Below are positions 4,027 to 64,000 of a stretch of DNA of 64,000 bases, in pieces. The notes under the pieces are model-generated. The model did not search any database and was not told where the DNA came from. It was given only the letters and a program-made list of their open reading frames with translations. A program made the translations under genes and the position numbers. The DNA comes from Isurus oxyrinchus (Eukaryota): contig JANJGN010000140.1 in the NCBI GenBank assembly GCA_026770705.1, positions 186,001 through 250,000 of the forward strand. Direction: 5' to 3'. Position 1 is the first letter of the stretch, and every line of letters starts with the position of its first letter.

Positions 4027-4069
4027 ATGGGAATCCTCCTTGTTTTCACCCTGTGTGTCTGTTTCCCCC
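4027..4069 (+). CDS. Leader exon of NAR-TCR V1 (MGILLVFTLCVCFP, phase 1)
   Basis: ATG at 4027, hydrophobic signal peptide, GTGAGT donor at 4070. Splices in frame to the acceptor TTTCCAG ending at 4217. Confidence 0.92.
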
Positions 4070-4217
4070 GTGAGTACCGATCAAACAAACCGAAATTGTG
4101 TGGATTCAATATAAAGCTGCCCGAGTCCATCCCAATTACAGACACTGTCTGGGGTTTTGACCTCGTTCTCTGGTTCGACGCCGATTGTCCATTGAACTCT
4201 CTCTGTTTAATTTCCAG

Positions 4218-4500
4218 GATCTTTCAGTCAGTCAGTGACACAGACCCCGGCAGCGGTGACCAGGAAGGAGTGTCAGTCTCTCACCATCACCTGTGTTTTC
4301 TCCGGTGCTTCGGGGCATTATTTCCAAACGGGACATTTCTTCAAACAAACCCAGATCGGGACAGAGTGGGAGCGGATTTCCAGCGGGGGGAGATTTGTTG
4401 TGTCGGTGAATAAAGCACAAAAGACATTTTCGCTGGAAATTCGGGATATGAGAGTTGAAGACGCCGCCACCTATTACTGTAAAGCTCAGTACTACACATA
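4218..4500 (+). CDS. NAR-TCR (IgNAR-type) V segment V1, unrearranged, open frame
   Basis: SFSQSVTQTPAAVTRKECQSLTITCVFSGASGHYFQTGHFFKQTQIGTEWERISSGGRFVVSVNKAQKTFSLEIRDMRVEDAATYYCKAQ. It shows the VNAR hallmarks of a short FR2-FR3 with no CDR2, a GGRF motif and YYCKA, plus an extra FR1 Cys (4271-4273). An RSS follows. Confidence 0.93.
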
Positions 4501-4538
4501 CACAGTGATGGGCCTCGGCTTCCCGCGATACAAAAGCT
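4501..4538 (+). other. 23-type RSS of V1
   Basis: CACAGTG + 22-nt spacer + ACAAAAGCT. Confidence 0.88.
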
Positions 4539-4865
4539 CTCACTGCAGATTATCACAGAAACAAATGAAAAAGCGGAGTTAATCTGCAGTTAAAGCCCCA
4601 CAGTTCCGCCTCACACCGTCTGCCCCACAGTCTAGTTTATAATGAGACTGGATTATTGCCGTTAACATCTTGAGTTTTATAAATGCCCAGTGTGTGCGGA
4701 TGGTGATGCCTTTCCTGGGATTGGTGTCAGTGAATGGGGATTGGGAATGACTGATCCCAGTTAGAAACCCCTAACGCCAGATGTGATCCTGGTCTAACAG
4801 CTGGAACCGGGAACGGCAGTCCCCGCTGTTTAACTAATGTCCCCAAATCTTACCAAGTGCCCGAG

Positions 4866-4938
4866 GGATTTTATGCTGACTTGTAACACTGTGTGGATGG
4901 ATGGGGGAGTCACAGTGGGAGAGACCTGAACAAACACG
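4866..4938 (+). other. D segment (coding 4894-4910, TGGATGGATGGGGGAGT) flanked by 12/12 RSS
   Basis: GGATTTTAT-12-CACTGTG on the 5' side and CACAGTG-12-ACAAACACG on the 3' side. All three frames are open (WMDGG, GWMGE, DGWGS). Confidence 0.88.
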
Positions 4939-5253
4939 TCTGTATAATTTAAATATAAATTCTCCGGGCCTGGATAGTGAATTGTCGGGTTAATGTTATT
5001 ATCGCTGGAACCTGGTTCCATTTCATTGTAATTTCCAACATTGAGTTATCTTTCTTTGATATTTTTCTCAGTTTATATGAAGCGAACATCTCGTTTCCGG
5101 GATCATTTACTCAGAGCTCAGGGCCTCACAAAGAACAGTTTGAACCGACAGAGACTTTGAAACATTGAATATTGCTTATTTATTTAAATCCGCTGAATAA
5201 TTGGGCAGTTTCTACTGTCTGATGATGATTTCTCGGCAGGTTGAGTTATCGGT

Positions 5254-5292
5254 GGTTGTTGTACAGGGGAGATTGTGAGCGGTGTCACTGTG
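5254..5292 (+). other. 23-RSS of NAR-TCR J1
   Basis: GGTTGTTGT + 23 nt + CACTGTG. Confidence 0.9.
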
Positions 5293-5345
5293 GTGGGAAA
5301 CTGATTATGCGGATGGATCCGGGACAGTGGTGACTGTCACAGCCG
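5293..5345 (+). CDS. NAR-TCR J segment J1 (WETDYADGSGTVVTVTA, phase-1 donor)
   Basis: G-x-G-T-x-V-T-V motif, upstream 23-RSS, GTAAG donor at 5346. Confidence 0.92.
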
Positions 5346-6189
5346 GTAAGTAGTTCCAAACCCCGCCGGGTTATAGCCTGTCCCGGGTAACGTTCACCAT
5401 CAGTTTATTATTGATATCAGTGGAGTTTGGGTGGGATGTGGGAGTTGACAGGATCTGGACCATTATTGGTTTAATGGGCACATCGGGGACAATATCAACA
5501 TCACGGACTCTCACACTCTGACTCGCTTTTAATGAGCGCAGATTGTCGACAATCCGGACTCCACTCCCGGTGCTAACTGTGACCGACGGAGCTCTGTCTG
5601 TCCCTTAGAGCCCGGGAGCGGGGTCACAGAGCTCTCTCCTGGGCAGCAGATTGCATTCCGAGCCGCGGAATGAGGTACCGGGTGAATAAACTGAACACAA
5701 CTGCGGCCAGTTCGGATACCTGCAGCAGCTCGTTCCATACCTGACCCGGGAGAAAAACGGGAGAGTGAAACAACGGCCTTCAGATATAAGAAATCCTGAT
5801 ATGGGTCCAGATGGAATTTTATTATTGGACAATCAGTGACTGAAATTAGTGACATTGTCCCCGCCATTTCTTTCATATAACCAAACACTTTCCTACTTTT
5901 CCGCCCTCAGACTGAAATGTGTAAGTTTGGAACTGCAGCCGCTTCTCTATATTGAATGTAAATGTTTGAGAGATGGGATTGCTGAAATGTATCTGTATCC
6001 CTGATTACTGTGAGTTGAAACAACACAGTGCAGTGAGACAGAGAGGATGATGCATTAATCTTATAAAGGAGAACAGGAACATAAGGAAACGATTGTAAGT
6101 TGTAAATTGGGGGGAATGTTCATTTAGAAGCAGCAATAAATAATTCATCGAAAGCGGGAGAAGGATTGGTGGATCTCTGGCCCAGTCAA

Positions 6190-6795
6190 AGTACAATCCG
6201 AGCCCAGTGCGGGTGAATGAGTTAAATGGACGGAAGGACTGAAATGGGCTCCAGTCTGGAATGCTTTGTAAAGTTTTGGTCTCCTTACTAAAGGAAGGAT
6301 CTACATGCATTGGAGGGCGTGCAGCAAAGGTTCATCAGACTGATTCCTGAGATAAAGGGATTGTCGTATAAGAAGAGATTGAGTTGTCTGGGCCTATGTT
6401 CCCTGGAGCTTAGATGAATGAGATGTAATTTCATTAGAAATCTAACATCCAGGGCACGATATATTCCCGGTGGGTGTCTCCCCAGGCTGAGAAGCCTATA
6501 ACTAGGGGTCAGAGTTTCAGGCTAAGGACTCGATCCTGAGAAATGAGAAGAAGAGAAATTTCTTCAGTGAAGCCACTGTTGTGAATCTCTGACATTCTCT
6601 TCCTCAGAGAGCTGTGAATGCCCAGTAGTTGGATGTTTTAAAGGAAGTATTCAATAGATTTCGGGATGCTAAAAGAATCAAGGGATATGGGGACATTGCT
6701 GCAAAGTGATGTTGAGTTAGGAGATGAGTCAGGTTATTATTGAATGTCGGAAAAGGTTTGAAAAGTGACGTGGCCGCTCCTGCTTCTGTTTGTTA
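6190..6795 (+). mobile_element. CR1 LINE 3' fragment, degenerate
   Basis: Similar to the 3' ends of the CR1 copies at 23600-24180 and 28900-29516. Confidence 0.6.
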
Positions 6796-9302
6796 CATTA
6801 ACTGCTCTGATCTGTTACACTTCTGAGAAAAGAAATCAGGAATAATCTACATCTCTGTGGAGAGGTTGAACAGGCCGGGCATCATGTCTCTGGAGAACAG
6901 GGAAAGAAAAGCAGAATTCATGGAAGTCGTTTAAATAACGAGTGGGTTCATTGGGGTATTTGTGGAATAGCTGCTTATTTGTGGGTGAGCCTAGAGCCAT
7001 TAGAATAAGACAGTCACTAACAGAACAAATAATGACATTAGGAAGAAGTGTAAAGACAGGCAGGTCAGAGTGTGGAACTTGCTGCCGCAGGGAGTGGTTG
7101 GAGCAGGTAGTATTGATACATTTATGGGAAGACTTGAAAATACAGGAGGGAGAATGGAACAGACTGACTCAGGGAGCTGACTGGAAATGGTCAATTAGAT
7201 TTCGGACAGATGGGGGCTGGTCCGCAGTAAATACACAGGCATAAATCATTTGAGCGGAATGGATTATTCCTATTCTGGCAGATATTATGTTAAATTACAA
7301 TTCGAGAAAACTTCAACCAGTCAATCAGTAAATGGGCGGAAATTTTTTTTTAAATTGTCAGCAAGGGGGAAGACACAGTTCCGAGTGAGTAACAGTAAAA
7401 CTACTGCGGAAACTGAACAGACTGAACCCAACAGACAACTGAGAGACTTTGGGGCAAGTTCCCACGATTGCTACGTTCCCATGCAAGAAGCACAAACTGC
7501 ACAAAGGAAATGGAGAAATAAAATGAAACTAAATGTAAATATATCAAAATAAGTGGAATTGGAAAAAAATTAAACCTATTGATAGAAGAAATTATGTTTT
7601 TTTTCCCAAACAAATGCTGATTGAAATACATTCAGATAATATTTCTCCTTCCATTTAAAGAATCGTGGTCTCTTAAAATGAGACTGCTACAATCTGAGTG
7701 TTCGTAATTATGATGCCAAAATGTATCCGTGTTCCTACATTACAGACGATGACTCGGGTGATCGGCCATATTGGCCTCTCAGGATTCATGTTTTACGAAG
7801 ATCACTGTCACGAGCTGCTGAAGGGACCTTTCATTGTACTAAATGTGCTTTAAAATGCAATTCGTATTTGTGGTAGCTCTGAGGCAAAACATGCTTATGT
7901 CATGCGCTGTTCTGCACCATTTCGCGCCAGTAGCTTTCAAAACCAGAAGGAAATTGGACAATATTTAATGTGCAAAACTTGTGGATGAAGCAGAAAGGCT
8001 TTTTCAGGTTTTTATTTTAGTTTTCGATGAATTAGATGATGCTTATGTCTTTTATTGCACATTAGGGATCAGCGGCAGCCCATCTGGAGCTACTCAAAGG
8101 TCGATTAAACAATCGACCACTTTTGAGCGACGTACGATCGGCCATGTTTATGTGATGTACAGTCAAACAAGATAGTGTGAGGTCCTCTGCTCCTGAAGTA
8201 GTTTCTTGGCCCTTTTCTGCCCTTTTCATGCCTGCCTGGATTACTGAGCAGCCCCATGTCCTTGCATCCGTCAGTTTCCAGGAGCATTTGACTGCGGCCA
8301 GTTCACAAGGTTCACTTCAACAGAACGAATTGTTAGATCCAGGACAGTTTAAACACAACTAACAGATTTCACCAAGTTAGTGGGTGTGATATTTTAAACA
8401 AGTCCCAAACACAGTGTTCGCCCCCATTTCAACTGTCCTCTGAGTGTGGCTTCATGTTCTAACACTACAACTGGAATCTCTGAATAAACCAGACCTAGAA
8501 ATCAAACATTGTTTTCTGGAAACATCATTTTAAATGCAAGTCATAGGGGAAGGTTGCAGCAAGCATTTGTTTCAATGAAGTGGAGAGTTTATTCTTTGTG
8601 GTATTTCTGTACTTCCGCCTTAATATTGGCAAAGTCTCTGGACTGTCTCACATTGTAATCTGGTCCTCAGTTCCTGGACTATGGCGGGTGTAAGGCTCCT
8701 TCCCTTGGAACAGACTTTCAGCTGAAGACCCACCAGCCAGTTCAGGGAGATGTTTAATAATTTCCCGCACAGGCAGCTCTGAAGAAGAGTTATACAGACT
8801 CGAAACGTTAATTCTGTTTCACTCTTCACAGATGCTGCCAGACTTGCCGAGTTCTTTCCAGCATTTTCTGTTTTTTCATGACAGTTAGAATAAAATTGAG
8901 GAAAGAGGGATTCTTTCACACTCCATTCTCATAAAATACCATTTGCCAAACACACATGGACAGACCTGCCAGGTCATTACTGTGGGAGAATGAGGGCTGC
9001 AGATTTCACTAATGGAAACAAATCCACCTCCCTTGCCCCATTACACTGGGCACTGTACATCAGACAAATGGGAGAGGGGACTTCACATCAGGCTTACAGG
9101 CCCAACGAAGCAATATGAAACTGCTAGTTCCGTTTTTAAACCTGTCACTTGTTCAGAAAACACACAAGCAGAGAGATGGGAATGGGGCAGCTAATCAATC
9201 ATCCGCGGGACATCGTCCTCTGCAAATCAACTGTACTGTCTAAAATATTTCAGTCCAGCTCTGAGTTCCAGTCTCCCTGAGCAGTTCAGAGCTGCAGTCT
9301 CC

Positions 9303-9800
9303 TACATTTAAGCAGAACACCGTGGAAACCTGAAATAAAAACAATAAATGCTGGAAATAACTCAGCAGTTCTGGCAGCATCTTTTATTTTATTCTTTGGA
9401 TGTGGGTGCTACTGGCAAGGCCAGCATTTATTGGCTATCCGCGTATTTCAGAGACAACAACATTACTATGGGTCTGGAGTCATATGTAGGCCAGACCAGC
9501 TAAGATTAGCAGATTTTCTTCCCTAAAAGCTGTTAGTGAACCTGATGGGTTTTACAACAATCGACAATGGTTGTATGGTCATCCTATTCGACTTTTGATT
9601 CCAGATTTTTATTCAATTCAAACTCCACCATCTGCCGTGGCTAAACTCGTACGCGGGGCCACAGGATATTACCCTGCGTCCTTGGACTACTAGCCTAGCA
9701 ACAACACCACTCCACAGCGATTGGAAATGTTAACGCTGTTACAATCTCCACAGACGCTGCCAGACTTGCTGAATTTCTGCAGCATTTTCTGTTTTTATTG
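9303..9800. mobile_element. ~500-bp insertion in the V2 promoter (inverted-repeat-bounded element with an internal SINE-like segment)
   Basis: Splits the conserved promoter block between ...GCTGCAGTCTCC (9301) and GCTCCCCGTCAT (9803). The ends AAATGCTGGAAA..CTCAGC..GGCAGCATC and GACGCTGCCAGACTTGCTGA..CAGCATTTT are mutually inverted. Confidence 0.7.
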
Positions 9801-9843
9801 CTGCTCCCCGTCATACAAACTATCAGCTCCAGGAAGCAGAAGG

Positions 9844-9886
9844 ATGGGAATTTAATTTGTTTTTACCCTGTGTGCCTGTTTACCCC
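9844..9886 (+). pseudogene. Inactivated leader exon of NAR V2
   Basis: ATG GGA ATT TAA places an in-frame stop at 9853-9855. The donor has degenerated to GTGGCT, versus GTGAGT in V1 and V3. Confidence 0.9.
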
Positions 9887-10034
9887 GTGGCTACCGATCA
9901 AACAAACCGATATTGTGTAGAATTAAGATAAAGCTACCCGAGTCCATCCCAATTATAAACACTGTCATGAGTTTTAGCCCCGTTATTTGGTTCGGCTCTG
10001 ACGGCCAATTAAACTCTTTTTGTTTAATTTCCAG

Positions 10035-10379
10035 GCTCTTTCAGTCAGTCAGTGGTACAGACCCCGGCAGCGGTGACCAGAAAGGAGTGTCAGTCCCTCA
10101 TCATCACCTGTGCTTTCAAAGGTAATTCTCATCGTTTAGAGGACGGACAATTCTTCAGACAAACCCAGACCGGGACTGAGCACGAGCGGATATCCAGCGG
10201 GGGGAGATTTGTTGTGTCAATAAATAAAGCAGAAAAGACTTTTTCGCTGGAAATTCGGGATGTGAGAGTTGAAGACACGGCCACCTATTACTGCAAAGCT
10301 CAGTATAAATATGGATGTGGTTCCCTTTGGAAAGATGGTTCTGTAGACGGATCCGGGACAAAGGTGACTGTCACAGCTG
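10035..10379 (+). CDS. Germline-joined NAR-type VDJ exon (V2), open frame, phase 1-1
   Basis: SFSQSVVQTPAAVTRKECQSLIITC...YYCKAQYKYGCGSLWKDGSVDGSGTKVTVTA. V runs directly into J with no RSS. The acceptor TTTCCAG (10034) and donor GTAAG (10380) are intact. Confidence 0.92.
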
Positions 10380-13300
10380 GTAAGTGACTGAAAACCGCGA
10401 CGTGTTACCAAGTATCCAGGCAAATAATCTGCATGGGGAGGGGTGGCCTCGTGGTACTGTCATTAGACAAGTAACCCAGCAGCCCTGTCAATCCTCTGTG
10501 TGCTAACTCTAGTTCATATCCCACCGCAGCAGCTGGTGGAATCCAAGCACCAGGAGTTAAATGTTGTTCTTAGTATGGTGATCATGAAACTACTGCCGAT
10601 TGTTTCGAACTGCCCAGCACTATACTCTGCTTAATGGAAAGAAATCTGCTGTTCTTACTTGGTTTAAACTACATATGACTTCAGACACAAAGCGTTGTGG
10701 TTTATCCTTAAGTGCTTGGTGAAATGATGGCCAAGCAAGCTACTTATTTGTATCAAATGGTTACTAAGTCTCAAAGAAAAGGATGGAACATGGACCACAT
10801 CACTTGGCATACCACCGGCCATCTGCCTAGGCTTCGGAAATGAGAATGGCAAACCCAGGCCTGTCCATCCTTTCAGTGTCCTCCTTACTAACCTCTGGAA
10901 GTATGTGCTAAAATTGGGAGAGCTTTCCCACATGTTTGTCAAGCAACAACCTGGCAGAGTCAAGCTCACGGAATCATAACGTACAATGTCTTATACAGCA
11001 CCATCACTATCCCTGTGCATGTCCTGTGCTACCGGCAGGATAGACCCAGAAGTGGCTGCACGGTGATATACAGTGAGCAGGGAGTTGCCTTGGGAAGCCT
11101 CAATATTAACTGCAGACCGCAAGGCGTCTCATGGCGCCAGCCCAAACATAGGAAGCAAACTTCCTACTTCTTATCAGCTATGTACGAACCGCCACTTGAG
11201 CTGATGAATCAGTACTCCTCGGTATTAAAACCAATTGGTAGAAGTATTGTGTGTGGGAAGGACTGCACTGTACTCCACTCTATGTGCTGCGTAAAGGTTA
11301 AGATTCATAATCGAGAAAAGATCTATATGTGTTGAAGGAAGTGAACAAAGTTTCATCAGGCAGCTTCCTGAGTTAAATGGTTTATCCTATGAGAAGAGGT
11401 GAAGGAATGACAATCTGCATTCCCTTGTGTTATGATGTGTCAGATGATGTGTGCTATGGATACAGCCACTTTTACAGTCTCACCACTTTAAAAGCCCCAT
11501 ACCAATTCCTGGATTCAATGTTCTTCTGACACTCGTAGCCTTAAGATTGAACATCTCCGAACTAATCAAGGAATTTCTAACATCCCGCAAAGAGCCCCCA
11601 GTTATGATATCACATGGCAGGTGATGTGTGCTAGGTGGGTCAAATCCACAAGGGAAACTTCATCGCTCTGTCACAACGGTTTTGCAATCGATATTTGCAT
11701 TGATTCTGAAGTAATGAGTCCAGCAAGACATTTAGAGACTTTTAAGAAATTAAATTAGAAGATTTATTCACAAAATAAAATATTCCAAACACATACATGA
11801 GATGACAAGGTATTTACTACCATAACAACTCCTAAAATTCTGAATTAACTTGACACCCAGTTATACACCCCTTAACGGCAACAGTCCAAATAGATTTTTG
11901 ATTTAAAACAGAACCAGCAAGTTAACGTAGCACACACTTGATAGTGGAATTCCTAATGGCTTCCCCAACATCACTAACATCACAAAGCAGACATATGCAA
12001 AAATGTCTGGCTGCTTCATAAAAGTTGTTTCACGAATTCATGTTAGATCTTACATGGCCCTCTCCTCACATCACTTTTCATTCTCCCGTATGTATGTTTC
12101 TCTCTCTTTAACATGTAAATTCTATTGTCCCATATGTGTTTAAAACTGCATCTTCCTCACTATATGAAAACTTTCATGTTGTCAATATTGTCAGCTCCCT
12201 TAGGAGCACATTAACACGAACGTCTTAGCCTTTCTTATCTAGCTAATTTTATGCAGCCTAGCATCCCTTTGAAGCCCAAATTCCCTTTACACTGTACATG
12301 CTAAGCCCCATCCACATTTACGTCTTAACATTTCAAGCATATTTCCACACAAATAGCTTCCTTTGATAATTTCAAGCTTGCTGCACACTTGACTCCAAAT
12401 GCAATAAAATCACACAGACAGAGCCAACAATACTTACATCCATTAACATACTGCAGAATAAACCAGAAAAAAAAAATTATAAAACTCATTATACTTTCGC
12501 AACAGTAGTTTCAAGGAATGTGAGCTGATCTCATTGGAACATATATTCTCAACGGGCTGACAGAGCAGATACTGCTGGGTATTTCCTGAGGCTACTGTTC
12601 TGAACCTGTTGCATTCAATACCTCAGAGAGCTGCGGATACTCAGTGGATGAATGGGAGTGTTCCATAGATGTTAGGTTATTAAAATAAATTGGGAATATG
12701 GGAATGTGATGCTTACGTCGAAGATCAGCCACGATATTATTGAACGTCCGAGCAGGTTTGAAAGTTGTTATGGCCATTCCTGCTTCTATTTGTAAGATTC
12801 TTTGCATTGATTTCTTAAAGTTCTGAGAAAAGAAATCAGCAAAAATGCAAATCTCTCTGGAAAGATTGAACAGGCTGGGTCACCTTTCTCTGGAAAACAT
12901 AGAACCAGGGAGAGAATTCAGAGAAATCTTTTAAATTATGAACGGGTTTAATGGAGTGCATGGGTTACAGCTGTATATTGGTGCATGAGTCCAGGTCAGT
13001 AGGACATTAATATCAGATCGTCACTAACGGAACAAAGATATTAAGAAGAAAAATGTGCGCTAAGACGCATCAGAATGTGGAACTTGATGCCACATTGAGT
13101 GGTTGGAGCAGACATTATTGGTGGATTTATGGGAAGGCTGAAAATACAGGAGGGAGAACGGAACAGGGCGGCTCAGGGAGCTGGATGGAAATGGTCAATT
13201 AGATTTCGGGTTGGGGGTACTGGTATGGAGTATACCCACAACATAAGTCACTGTGCCGAATGGCTGGTCTCTCTCCTGCAGATGGAGTACATTGAAAAAC

Positions 13301-14250
13301 TTAGAGAAAACTCCGCCCAGAGAACGCGGAGAAAATCAGTCAAAAGGCGAAAGAATTGAAATTGTCAGAGAGGCGGAAGAGGCAGTTCCCAGTGAGTAAC
13401 AGTAAAACCACTGCGGAAACTGAACAGACTGAAGCCAACCGACAACTGAAAGAGATTGGGACAAGTTCCCACGATTGTAAGACGTACAAATAGTGCAAAA
13501 TAAATGTAAAAATAAAATGAAACTAACTATAAATATTTCAAATTAAAGAGAAATGGGGAAACAGAGATTAATCGAAGAAAATAAACTAATAGACCCAAGA
13601 GCAGATGGAAGCAACTGAGAAGTGTTAAACTGCAGCTAATGGGTGACATTTCACCATCGATATTCACTATCTGTTTGACCCGATTGGTGCTGCCGAATTG
13701 CAATCGCATTCTGTTGAATCTTGCTGTGCGCAGTGATGCGTTATATCTGGGTCACTGTCTGACAAATAGTTTTTGGAAACTGACTGTTTCACTGTTAATA
13801 AGAAGTTCCCTCGGGGTTGTCTCTCAGCAGGGAAAATAAAAACACATCTAATATACATAATAGAACCATTCAGCGCGGAAGGATGACATCCGGCCCATCG
13901 TGTAAGTGCTGTCCCTTTAAAAGTGTAATCCAATTGTTCCCACCACTCATGCATATTCTCCATATTCCTGCATTTTTTCTGCTTCAGAACAGATACATCA
14001 CCCGTTTGAAAGTTACTACTGAATCTGTTCCCAAAACCCATTCAGATAGTAAAGTCCTGATCGGAGGAATTCGCTATGGAAGAGAAAATATCATCTCATT
14101 CCCCAGTTGACCATAGTTCAGTAACAATGAGCAGCGTTCGAACAGGCTTCAAATCGAGATAAAAAAACACAAAGCTGTTCGCGCGATTGACAAATTCCCC
14201 ATATCAGCAGTAGCTAAACAAAAACAAAATGTTCATTTTTCACCCTTCAG

Positions 14251-14556
14251 GTTCCCGTCTCCTGATATTCCAGAATCCGCCTTTACAAACCTCTGCTGCT
14301 GGTGACACCGTTACTTTAAGCTGTGAATATTCAGGTATCTGTCAGTACACAGTACACTGGTACCGTCAGTCCCCAGGACAGGCTCCGGAATATCTGCTTC
14401 AGAGACACACTTCAGGAGAGGAGAATAAAGAAAATGCTGTCGGGGAGAGAATTTCTGCTTCTATCGATTCTGCCAAGAAAATCAGCCGGTTAATTATCTC
14501 CAAACTACAACTGAGCGACTCCGCTGTGTATTACTGTGCACTGAGTCGGCGCAGAG
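14251..14556 (+). CDS. Leaderless supporting TCR-delta V segment of NAR-TCR
   Basis: SRLLIFQNPPLQTSAAGDTVTLSCEYSGICQYTVHWYRQSPGQAPEYLL...SDSAVYYCALSRR. It has TCR alpha/delta V motifs, an extra CDR1 Cys (14340-14342) and a phase-1 acceptor CCCTTCAG. I see no upstream leader exon. A perfect 23-RSS follows. Confidence 0.9.
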
Positions 14557-14595
14557 CACAGTGATACAGAGCATGGAGAGAGCTGTACAAAAACC
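14557..14595 (+). other. Consensus 23-RSS of the supporting V-delta
   Basis: CACAGTG + 23 nt + ACAAAAACC. Confidence 0.95.
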
Positions 14596-15007
14596 TGAAC
14601 ATGGTGGGAAATACAGACACACAGTGATAACAGAGCACGGAGAGAGCTGTACAAAAACCTGAACATGGTGGGAAATACAGACACACAGTGATACAGAGCA
14701 CGGAGGGCGCTGTACAACAATTTAACATGATGGGATTAGAGGCACACAGTGATACAGAGCACGGAGAGAGCTGTACAAAAACCTGAACATGGTGGGATTA
14801 CAGATACACAGTGATACAGAGCACGGGAGGGAGCTATACAAAAATTTAACGTGGTGGGATGAGAGACACACAGTGATACAGAGCATGGAGAGAGCTGTAC
14901 AAAATCCTGAACATAGTGTGATTACAGACACATAGTGAAACAGCACGGAGAGAGCTGTACAAAATCCTGAACATCGTGGGATTGCAGACACATGGAGATA
15001 CACAATG
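14557..15007 (+). repeat. Tandem array (~62-bp unit, ~7 copies) of the 23-RSS
   Basis: Heptamers at 14557, 14620, 14684, 14745, 14807, 14869 and 14931 (CATAGTG). Each is followed after 21-24 nt by an ACAAAAACC-like nonamer. Confidence 0.93.
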
Positions 15008-29894: not shown

Positions 29895-29933
29895 AGTTTT
29901 TGCACGGTGGTGAGATTGCTCCACATCACTGTG
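29895..29933 (-). other. 23-RSS of the minus-strand V pseudogene
   Basis: On the minus strand: CACAGTG + 23 nt + GCAAAAACT. Confidence 0.85.
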
Positions 29934-30560
29934 AGTCTCAGAGAGAGTAATAATACACCAAACTGTCAGTACTCATGTCTTTGTAAAGAATAGGTTAAGT
30001 ATCGAAAGAAGCTGCCACTGCATAAAGTAAAGATCCTCGTACAGCATTCGCAGGGCAGGTACAGGCACGGATTGGATGCAGAGTAATATTCCCTCTCAAA
30101 TGTTCCATTTAAAATTCTCAGTGCAGGTACATTGCCAGTTACATACAGAGTAAAATCCCATCCCAGCAACCTCGCCTTGGACAGGTAAAGCACTGATTAT
30201 ACGGAGAATAAAGTCCCATCAATCTGTCTGCATCAAACATTCCTCGGTAAGGCGCAACACAGGCTATAAATAGAACAAGGATCCCTTTACACTGTACCAT
30301 TGAACATTCCCCAGGTCTTGTGTAGCACACGTTAAATACAGAGTAATGTTCCCTCCAAAATCTCAGGGCAGATGTAACATGGGTTACTGTGTTAGATACT
30401 GAGTGAAACACCATGCTGTCCATTTAAATTGCTGGAATAATATCCACGATTAACAGGCGCTGCTTTCTGGGACTTTACAGGTACTTGCTGAATAATTTTG
30501 TTCTGAAATTGAGCTCAGGGTCAGGCAAATCTTATGAAGTAATTATCTGATATTCAAGAT
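29934..30560 (-). pseudogene. Decayed TCR alpha/delta-type V segment interrupted by a satellite insertion
   Basis: The 3' part reads ASFDT*...TDSLVYYYSL* up to the RSS (compare ASIDS..SDSAVYYCAL). A 5' remnant LTLS..KYL*SPRKQRLLI lies near 30430-30530. Confidence 0.6.
30020..30420. repeat. ~65-bp unit satellite-like repeat
   Basis: Recurrent ..CAGGGCAGGTAC..GATACAGAGTAA.. units. Confidence 0.65.
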
Positions 30561-43935: not shown

Positions 43936-44926
43936 TTTGTCGGAGCTCCCACTACAATTTTTTTTTCAGCTCAGATGGCAGCGCCACAAGTAACCCTTCC
44001 GTAGGGAAGCAGAAGTTCAAGAACTAAGACTTAATTCATATTCTAAAATAACAGACTCTGCGCAAATTGACTTTAATCCTAAATCCACTAAAACTCACTG
44101 TCACGCCCCCTGTTAACAATTTTAATACTCATATAATTTTCCGCGTCTTTAACAGTGACATTTGGAGAGCTTTTCAACTTCATTGATGCAACTGCCACCT
44201 ACTGGAAATAAGCCAGGAATAAATGTGCATCTGTGCCAGCGGCGGGAATGCTGGCCGAGTGGACTCACAGCGGCCAGGCCAGTTCCCTCTAATCACTGAT
44301 GGTGTGATATTGTCCGAAGAGGATATGGCATGGGGCTGACACAGCTCCATTCCTATGTGTGTCTTAGGGTGAAATAGTTCATTTTGCTGCTGTGCTGGTT
44401 AAGGTTTTTTCCACAGTAGAGAAGTGGTCGGTCCTCACGTTGGGACTTGTGAACAGGGATGTGTTTCTCTGTTTATTTCTGTCTGGTTTTAGCGCTCACT
44501 GTGATGTTAATGCACATGTGGAATCCGAATGAAAAAATAATGATCAGGTTTGGTTAAGGGACGAATGTTTCTAAATGTTCAAGTTTTCTTCCAGCCAACA
44601 GTTCCAGCGGGTGTTCTGTGTGTAAACAGTATTTGGACAGGACAATGGGGGAAGGAGAAGGAGAAGGAAGGTGATGCTGGTTTGTCATTTTAATACAGCA
44701 GATATTGCCCATTACCTTTTCTTGTGCTGGCAGTTTCCTGGTCGGGCTCCAGTCAACCTGTTGCTTATTGTCCAATATGTCGCCTTATGAGCCAATTTCA
44801 CGAAGAAGGGACTTATAAAAAAGCTGAGAACAGAGGTCACGGTTCCGCTGGGAGTTTCTGGGTGGAGCTGCCAGAGGTCGCCGTTTATGACTGTGCTCTG
44901 AGACCCTCAGATAAACAGTTCAATTG

Positions 44927-63706: not shown

Positions 63707-63803
63707 TTTCAGTCCAGCTCTGAGGTCCGGCCTCCCAATGCAGTCCAGGACTGCAGTCTAGAACTCCCAGTCATATAAACCCCCAGCTCCAGGCAGCAGA
63801 ACG
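63707..63803 (+). promoter_or_regulatory. Promoter of NAR-type V3 (TATAAA 63774-63779)
   Basis: Homologous to 3930-4026. Confidence 0.65.
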
Positions 63804-63846
63804 ATGGGAATCCACTTTGTTTTCACTCTGTGTGTCTGTTTACCCC
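63804..63846 (+). CDS. Leader exon of a third NAR-TCR V (MGIHFVFTLCVCLP)
   Basis: Intact ATG and GTGAGT donor; intron homologous to that of V1. Confidence 0.88.
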
Positions 63847-63988
63847 GTGAGTACCGATCACACAAACCGACATTATGTGGATGTCATATAAAGCTGCCCG
63901 GGTCCATCCCAATTACAGACAGGGGGTTTGACCCGGTTCTGTGATTCGGCTCTGATGGTCCATGAAACTATCTCTGTTTAATTTCCAG

Positions 63989-64000
63989 GAGATTTCAGTC
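63989..64000 (+). CDS. Start of the third NAR-TCR V exon (runs off window)
   Basis: Acceptor TTTCCAG, then (R)DFSQ, homologous to the V1 and V2 starts. Confidence 0.75.

Follow-up and report, generated by a model that had tools for sequence, protein, structure and literature searches.

In the 64,000-nt window of the Isurus oxyrinchus genome that we analyzed (contig JANJGN010000140.1 of assembly GCA_026770705.1, positions 186,001 to 250,000, forward strand; coordinates below are positions in this window), a NAR VDJ exon that is already joined in the germline, V2, lies between a rearranging NAR V-D-J unit and a leaderless supporting Vdelta exon (Table 1). In all likelihood the mRNA includes V2 as a spacer that does not vary, and the product would be a delta chain of three V domains tied head to tail by two predicted disulfides. 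Taking the window together with its paralogues, we judge on balance that these loci probably encode NAR-TCR delta chains with between three and five V domains, for which a disulfide ladder is predicted. A literature search, incomplete for key papers, found no delta chain with three or more V domains, and the portions of the literature on TCR chains that we consulted (NAR-TCR, TCR mu) describe at most two V domains per chain.

Table 1. Features of the cassette, in window coordinates.
Feature	Position	Strand	Remarks
V1 leader exon, intact	4027..4069	+	donor GT at 4070
V1, rearranging NAR-TCR V exon	4218..4500	+	extra FR1 Cys 4271; canonical Cys 4292, 4478
V1 recombination signal	4501..4538	+	consensus heptamer, 22-nt spacer
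D segment	4894..4910	+	flanked by two 12-spacer signals; DGWGS in frame 3; Cys in no frame
J1	5293..5345	+	23-spacer signal upstream; consensus phase-1 donor at 5346
Intron stretch	6568..7594	.	70.5% identity to 12587-13583 (V2-Vdelta intron)
V2 leader, disabled	9844..9886	+	stop at codon 4 (9853); degraded donor
V2, germline-joined NAR VDJ exon	10035..10379	+	open frame; consensus phase-1 acceptor and donor; canonical Cys 10109, 10292
Leaderless supporting TCR-delta V exon	14251..14556	+	extra CDR1 Cys 14340; canonical Cys 14322, 14535
Supporting-V 23-spacer recombination signal	14557..14992	+	seven 62-nt tandem units

V1 has the marks of a NAR-TCR V, namely an intact leader, the extra FR1 cysteine and Phe in place of the Trp of WYRK, and recombination signals are present on V1, D, J1 and Vdelta. 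V2 is 80% identical to V1 and is a contiguous VDJ exon without internal recombination signals. It is nearest to VNARs: the nearest solved sequences are shark VNARs (E 5e-21) and the nearest proteins are shark NAR-TCR models. The next V-family exon after V2 is the TCR Vdelta, and none of the four ATG frames in the 450 bases upstream of that exon is leader-like. The intron stretch that resembles the V2-Vdelta intron is a vestige of the duplication from which the cassette arose; a supporting-V remnant was sought between J1 and V2 and not found. No constant exon was found in the window by a motif scan of open frames of at least 75 residues, and there is no Cdelta-like exon on the window's contig. 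Two Cdelta-like exons are present elsewhere in the genome (70-74% to a database C region), one of them 70-160 kb downstream of paralogous cassettes and in the same orientation.

We propose that V2 would have arisen through germline joining of a NAR V-D-J unit, with a change of its D-encoded Trp codon to Cys. In the T cell, V1-D-J1 and Vdelta-D-J would rearrange separately, and the mRNA would then run leader, V1DJ, V2, VdeltaDJ, Cdelta. The FR1 Cys of V1 would bond to the CDR3 Cys of V2, and the FR1 Cys of V2 to the CDR1 Cys of Vdelta, this second rung being the pairing already proposed for ordinary NAR-TCR. Because such a spacer has one spare Cys at each end it should be able to stack on itself, so that where a cassette has three joined exons the chain would reach as many as five V domains.

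The four non-canonical cysteines lie where the original prediction placed them, with TGT codons at 4271 (V1 FR1, in the motif RKEC), 10088 (V2 FR1), 10316 (V2 CDR3, in YGCGS) and 14340 (Vdelta CDR1, in SGICQ). Counting the canonical pairs, V1 has three cysteines, V2 four and Vdelta three, and V2 lacks a CDR1 Cys. The origin of the CDR3 Cys in a D-like Trp codon also held up: in frame 3 the D of the window encodes DGWGS, and YGWGS is found in two paralogous D segments, against YGCGS in V2.

The plan of the window recurs in this shark. In the examined regions of the genome we counted 25 full-length joined exons in 17 cassettes on five contigs, several of the 17 probably being haplotype copies. 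A cassette contains at most three joined exons, and three in a row occur in 4/17. The window's cassette has three compatible V exons and paralogues have up to five, in departure from the two-V plan described for NAR-TCR. A leader-bearing NAR unit lies upstream in 16 of the 17 cassettes, and a supporting Vdelta or a remnant of one lies downstream in every case (17/17). Against the three-V plan, a NAR unit is missing immediately upstream of one joined pseudo-exon (C26:25218143). We rejected the idea that the junction is an artefact of assembly from a rearranged lymphocyte, as there are 25 genomic copies on five contigs and further examples in other genera. Where a joined exon is broken, another part of the cassette is also broken or missing (6/6 cassettes), and in one cassette with an internally deleted joined exon a single CDR1 Cys persists in the supporting V.

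Two outcomes had been named beforehand as refuting the ladder, a V2 CDR3 Cys out of reach of the V1 A-B loop Cys in models and a lack of conservation of this Cys in orthologues; neither was observed. The CDR3 Cys is kept in all 25 paralogues, always as TGT, and in white-shark and basking-shark gene models, and the FR1 Cys codon is likewise kept in 25/25. Nineteen of the 25 joined exons are open, and each of these 19 has exactly four cysteines, with spare ones only in FR1 and CDR3. The leader-bearing Vs have exactly three (14/14 scorable), and the ladder is complete in all 11 cassettes in which every exon is open. The original claim that the three-V chain has no free thiol does not hold without exception: cysteine counts are odd in two orthologous models, and 4/19 distinct D segments can encode Cys in some frame. 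These two observations would also suit a three-V chain whose CDR3 Cys is paired otherwise, whether with the gamma chain, with another delta chain or with a Cys that D contributes to the CDR3 of rearranged V1. There is a precedent for such pairing in shark UrIg2, where V domains are joined between chains by non-canonical disulfides, according to the part of that account we drew on (PMC12227049). We regard alternative pairing as unlikely: it leaves unaccounted for the single spare Cys at each end of 19/19 open joined exons, among them the members of three-exon stacks, and V2 has no CDR1 Cys to serve as an intradomain partner. The positions of the base and apex cysteines also argue against it. 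In an AlphaFold2 model of an orthologue at 93% identity, the CDR3 Cys is at the tip of the F-G hairpin and the FR1 Cys is in the A'-B turn, at opposite ends of the domain. The model places the two at base and apex, as in the original prediction, and the bonds themselves are predicted. A complex prediction for two neighbouring joined domains (C26:38.75-38.76 Mb), run as separate chains and without alignments, scored 0.02 against a mark of 0.34 and gave no verdict. When the orthologue model was compared with the PDB by Foldseek, the matches were to scFv, diabody and dual-V antibodies with rmsd values of 10-22 Å and were uninformative on the interface.

Most joined exons have lost their leaders, and all have kept their splice sites. 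Of their own leaders 22/25 are broken, through lesions of at least five types; the other three retain an ATG, a GT donor and an open frame. The AG/GT splice sites are kept in 25/25. Only one or two nonsense events are seen, compared with about 13 expected under neutrality (P about 2e-4 or less, a rough estimate), and dN/dS is about 0.50 over 125/136 pairs. For the CDR3 Cys by itself, retention could be neutral (P about 0.08-0.12), and 5 of 18 CDR3 columns are invariant. These data bear on the possibility that duplication left the joined exons behind as relics and that splicing normally skips them, with cysteines carried over from one founder, so that the cassette makes an ordinary two-V NAR-TCR. 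The data do not reject one origin for all joined exons (p-AU 0.458), the CDR3 Cys could have been retained neutrally, and 6/25 full-length copies are broken and three more are internally deleted; an array on C242 demonstrates that tandem NAR units can be decaying. We nevertheless find this reading improbable, given the strong deficit of nonsense changes, the dN/dS of about one half, the contrast between splice sites and leaders, the retention of the joined junction in two other shark genera, and a paralogue that is spliced in frame into Vdelta. In the C242 array, moreover, the damaged units are upstream of an intact unit beside the supporting V, which is the reverse of the joined-exon plan.

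Splicing was searched for in contigs from 6/13 listed sequencing runs (X1-X5, X10), none of the runs being on record as RNA. In a contig of depth 2 from run X2, classed as RNA by an automatic guess, the J donor of a paralogue (C26:30056133) is joined in frame to the Vdelta that supports it, exactly at the start of that exon; this contig could also be a sterile transcript. Among the joints listed for these six runs, none links a NAR J to a joined exon, V1-J to V2 included, and no somatic junction was seen among the listed contigs. A contig from X1 that had looked like a rearranged V-D was rejected as a somatic join because it matches a germline V-D-joined family. The one listed contig that enters the V2 acceptor, also from X1, was rejected as V1-J splicing, its upstream part being a zinc-finger-like exon found at 8 places elsewhere in the genome. 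With that exon and an in-frame stop, it indicates that non-productive transcripts use the V2 acceptor. All splice sites of the cassette are phase 1, so skipping of V2 would also yield an in-frame chain.

Acceptance of this foreign exon raises the alternative that V2 is an invariant N-terminal domain, the V1 leader being spliced past an unrearranged V1 to give a chain of two V domains whose binding site is fixed and whose CDR3 Cys is exposed. Three NCBI models (P0002, P0004, P0005) run in the order leader, joined V, Vdelta, the leader frame is retained in 3/25 joined exons, and germline-joined Ig clusters are described in sharks in the part of the literature we used (PMC3149040). The leaders in those three models come from automatic annotation, however, and N-terminal use would not explain three joined exons in a row. 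It also fits poorly with the CDR1 region of the joined exons, which has a mean of 1.0 aromatic residues in 20 joined exons compared with 4.0 in 14 leader-bearing Vs (the copies are not independent), a depletion expected of a non-binding spacer. We consider N-terminal use quite unlikely.

The proposed receptor shares its outer parts with NAR-TCR (Criscitiello 2006), which is described as a TCR delta chain of cartilaginous fish that rearranges twice, once in each of its two V domains, and with an interdomain disulfide from the NAR V to the supporting V that is called putative (PMC1845163, as far as the consulted text goes). From the same partial description, both have a NAR V that bears a leader and an a-b loop Cys but lacks the WYRK Trp, a leaderless Vdelta with a CDR1 Cys, and separate recombination signals; unlike NAR-TCR, the cassettes insert NAR V exons already joined in the germline, from one to three of them, and each of these carries a further spare Cys in its CDR3. 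An invariant, pre-assembled V as internal support under a diversified N-terminal V is also reported for Vmu-j of marsupial TCR mu in the sections available to us (PMC3457774, PMC2275272), and the likeness is one of analogy only. In those sections TCR mu has two VH-related V domains, its own C and a mammalian TRM locus; V2 is not VH-related. The shark exon further differs in being NAR-type, in being added to a still-rearranging Vdelta, in keeping its leader intron and in being repeatable. A CDR3 Cys is often found in IgNAR VNARs, as it is in V2, and in the part of the VNAR account consulted (PMC3149040) it bonds within the domain to a CDR1 or framework Cys, whereas the sole other spare Cys of V2 lies at the far end of the modelled domain. 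IgNAR V-D-J is spliced to IgNAR constant exons, unlike the V2 paralogue that is spliced to Vdelta.

More tentatively, and with rather less confidence than doubt, we suggest a lamniform TCR of adjustable height, in which a diversified NAR domain would be raised above Vdelta by one, two or three invariant V spacers that stack on themselves and are locked by disulfides, for a total of three to five V domains, and in which cassette choice or exon skipping would set the reach. If a chain of three to five V domains is real, receptor height could be extended by a reusable module, and germline-joined supporting Vs would have been used a second, independent time. A spare Cys at each domain end predicts specific linked peptides, by which the long-proposed interdomain disulfide of NAR-TCR becomes testable.

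Public annotation misses the joined-exon architecture, and none of 60 database protein matches has a diversified V1 followed by a joined V2. The junction and its cysteines are kept in gene models of Carcharodon (XP_041031384.1, XP_041031398.1 and XP_041031388.1) and Cetorhinus (XP_078393265.1). XP_041031384.1 consists of two joined domains plus Vdelta. The white-shark model XP_041031398.1 has two CDR3 cysteines, which breaks the even count, and the supporting V has no CDR1 Cys in both basking-shark sequences. An unconfirmed gene model from Heterodontus (XP_067869961.1) has tandem NAR domains and lacks the CDR3 Cys. One white-shark model with the joined exon bears the annotation name DSCAM-like.

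In the window the germline-joined NAR exon V2 lies between a rearranging NAR V (V1) and a supporting Vdelta. The leader of V2 is interrupted by a stop at codon 4 and its donor is degraded; every donor and acceptor of J1, V2 and Vdelta matches the consensus, in phase 1. V2 shares 93% identity with a protein of Carcharodon carcharias, which makes the source shark likely lamniform. One kilobase of the J1–V2 intron is 70.5% identical to the V2–Vdelta intron, and a search of the J1–V2 intron for a supporting-V remnant found none.

Features of the window (assembly G000, contig C140, 186001-250000); coordinates are window positions
Feature	Position	Strand	Remarks
V1	4218-4500	+	intact leader; recombination signal present
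D segment	4894-4910	+	downstream of V1
J1	5293-5345	+	downstream of D
V2	10035-10379	+	contiguous VDJ exon
Supporting Vdelta	14251-14556	+	no leader; 23-spacer signal
23-spacer signal of supporting V	14557-14992		tandem array of seven 62-nt units; heptamer and nonamer match the consensus in several
IgH-like V, one D, one J	39190-37845	-	V with leader; no constant exon found within the window
Remnants of decayed TCR Vs; also the beginning of a NAR V cassette with a frameshift	about 600-900; 29930-30000; 44700-44900; 63793-64000	+; -; +; +	the frameshifted cassette runs past the window end

V2 belongs to a family. We scored the best 150 of 648 candidates from a search of the assembly with V2, the best 150 of 1712 with Vdelta and the best 40 of 76 from a DNA search with the junction, so the counts that follow are lower bounds. 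The fetched regions contain at least 25 full-length joined exons (19 open, five with a stop at one common codon and one frameshifted) in at least 17 cassettes, as well as three internally deleted joined exons and a truncated fragment. Several cassettes on contigs C140, C151, C152 and C210 are near-copies of C26 cassettes and may be haplotypes, so independent cassettes are fewer. Thirteen cassettes have one joined exon and four have three; a leader-bearing NAR unit lies upstream in 16 of the 17, and a supporting Vdelta or its remnant downstream in all 17. A tree built from 105 distinct V parts places the 21 joined parts in two groups with support, one of 14 rows and one of 7, and a single origin is not rejected (p-AU 0.458); the junction letters they have in common suggest that they share one. 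Several other NAR families are only partly joined, with V and D fused in the germline and J separate (loci L148, L152-L155, L157, L169-L171, L029 and L030, and L121-L135 at C242:400000-545000), and in one large V-D-fused family the V frame is closed by a stop right before the D signal.

The sequences indicate that the joined exon is maintained as an open frame without a leader of its own. Its leader is broken in 22 of 25 copies (through the codon-4 stop, a deletion, a lost donor or one of two kinds of ATG loss); the AG and GT splice sites are kept in all 25; one or two nonsense events are seen, against about 13 changes expected under neutrality (P about 2 x 10−4 or less, a rough estimate that assumes equal rates and comes from searches favouring intact copies); dN/dS is about 0.50 (125 of 136 pairs, those with dS > 0.05); and the CDR1 region averages 1.0 aromatic residues in 20 joined exons, compared with 4.0 in 14 leader-bearing Vs. 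That V2 is instead a relic skipped in splicing we regard as quite improbable. The array on C242 serves as a control: there, damaged tandem NAR units lie upstream of an intact unit adjoining the supporting V, the reverse of the plan of the joined cassettes.

Four extra cysteines had been noted, at 4271, 10088, 10316 and 14340, and all four positions were borne out. The FR1 Cys codon and the TGT at the CDR3 position are kept in all 25 full-length joined exons. Exactly four cysteines occur in each of the 19 open joined exons, and exactly three in each of 14 scorable leader-bearing Vs (five others were unscorable). The CDR1 Cys is present in 28 of the 30 best supporting-V loci, the remaining two being unparsed. 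At locus L076 (C26:30028547), beside an internally deleted joined exon, the supporting V has this Cys shifted by two residues (SCIRQ). The CDR3 Cys probably arose when a Trp codon in a D segment changed to Cys, judging from germline Ds whose frame 3 gives YGWGS or DGWGS. Retention of the CDR3 Cys has P of about 0.08-0.12 under neutrality and so is by itself compatible with neutrality; with orthologues added this Cys shows no change and each neighbouring residue shows three, but invariant columns make up 5 of the 18 in CDR3.

In an AlphaFold2 model of the white shark orthologue P0002 (37 sequences; mean pLDDT 76.9, pTM 0.60), the conserved CDR3 Cys (109) sits at the F-G hairpin tip, the FR1 Cys (33) in the stretch joining strands A' and B, and the Vdelta CDR1 Cys (160) in the B-C loop. 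Solved VNARs have Gly in the FR1 Cys column, in the same turn. In the V fold the A'-B turn is next to the C-terminus of the domain, with the CDR loops next to the N-terminus; because of this, the modelled positions make base-to-apex bonds between consecutive domains plausible, and a bond between the two spare cysteines within V2 not plausible.

The most likely reading, which we hold with modest confidence, is that the cassette mRNA would read leader-V1DJ-V2-VdeltaDJ-Cdelta and that V2 would form an invariant spacer, disulfide-bonded to V1 above and Vdelta below. That a three-V chain is made seems probable and, given the chain, the proposed pairing quite probable. Runs X1 and X2 come from one sample, RNA by an automated guess, and yielded a single contig apiece on V2, at depth 2-2.5. 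The X2 contig shows six differences relative to the window, the same number as the paralogue at C26:30056133, and the four listed differences match that paralogue; the contig exits at the J donor and runs on in frame into the opening 30 bases of the supporting Vdelta in that cassette. The X1 contig begins exactly at the V2 acceptor and has an in-frame stop. The acceptor and the donor of the joined exon are therefore both used. No J1-V2 joint was seen among these contigs, either of which may be sterile. V1-J splicing was rejected for X1, where the preceding part is a zinc-finger-like exon from elsewhere in the assembly; this exon, repeated at loci L081-L088, has a real donor. V2 might alternatively be an invariant N-terminal domain using a borrowed leader, which we consider distinctly unlikely.

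The junction occurs in 4 of 60 database protein matches, none from outside Carcharodon and Cetorhinus, and the same four top 68 junction-profile matches; in both genera the evidence is protein gene models rather than DNA. Carcharodon XP_041031384.1 has two joined domains ahead of Vdelta, and XP_041031388.1 also carries the junction. The CDR3 Cys is, as predicted, unchanged in the orthologue alignment with both genera. In organism C, contigs from runs X5 and X10 extend across the joined CDR3 and its donor; each has two differences, and no listed difference falls at the Cys codon. Cysteine counts agree in part with the complete disulfide ladder of the original prediction: the number is even in all 11 all-open cassettes (four with a weak-looking recombination signal), but Carcharodon XP_041031398.1, which has the junction, has two CDR3 cysteines, and the supporting V lacks the CDR1 Cys in both Cetorhinus models (XP_078393265.1, which has the junction, and its cluster mate). 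Bonding of the CDR3 Cys to another partner is an unlikely alternative to the proposed pairing. A Heterodontus gene model, P0003 (XP_067869961.1), has two tandem NAR domains with a common junction without Cys, which may reflect a separate joining event in the germline or an artefact of annotation.

V1 and Vdelta have the sequence characters that define NAR-TCR in PMC1845163, where the interdomain bond is called putative. Marsupial TCR mu, through its germline-joined supporting V, offers the closest working analogue of V2; that supporting V is VH-related and sits in a chain with two V domains (PMC3457774, PMC2275272 and PMC7615758). We found no germline-joined NAR-TCR V or three-V chain in literature searches or in passages of PMC12227049, PMC6795676, PMC5931798 and PMC3149040; a germline-joined, stackable V exon would be a new variation on the NAR-TCR plan, with earlier mention possible.

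The assembly also contains two distinct Cdelta-like exons (C242:616927 and C26:29902121; L199 and L200). In supporting-V models of catsharks, epaulette shark and horn shark (P0025, P0029-P0031, P0033, P0036, P0038, P0042, P0045, P0046 and P0048), the first canonical Cys is replaced by Trp or Tyr and the CDR1 Cys is kept.
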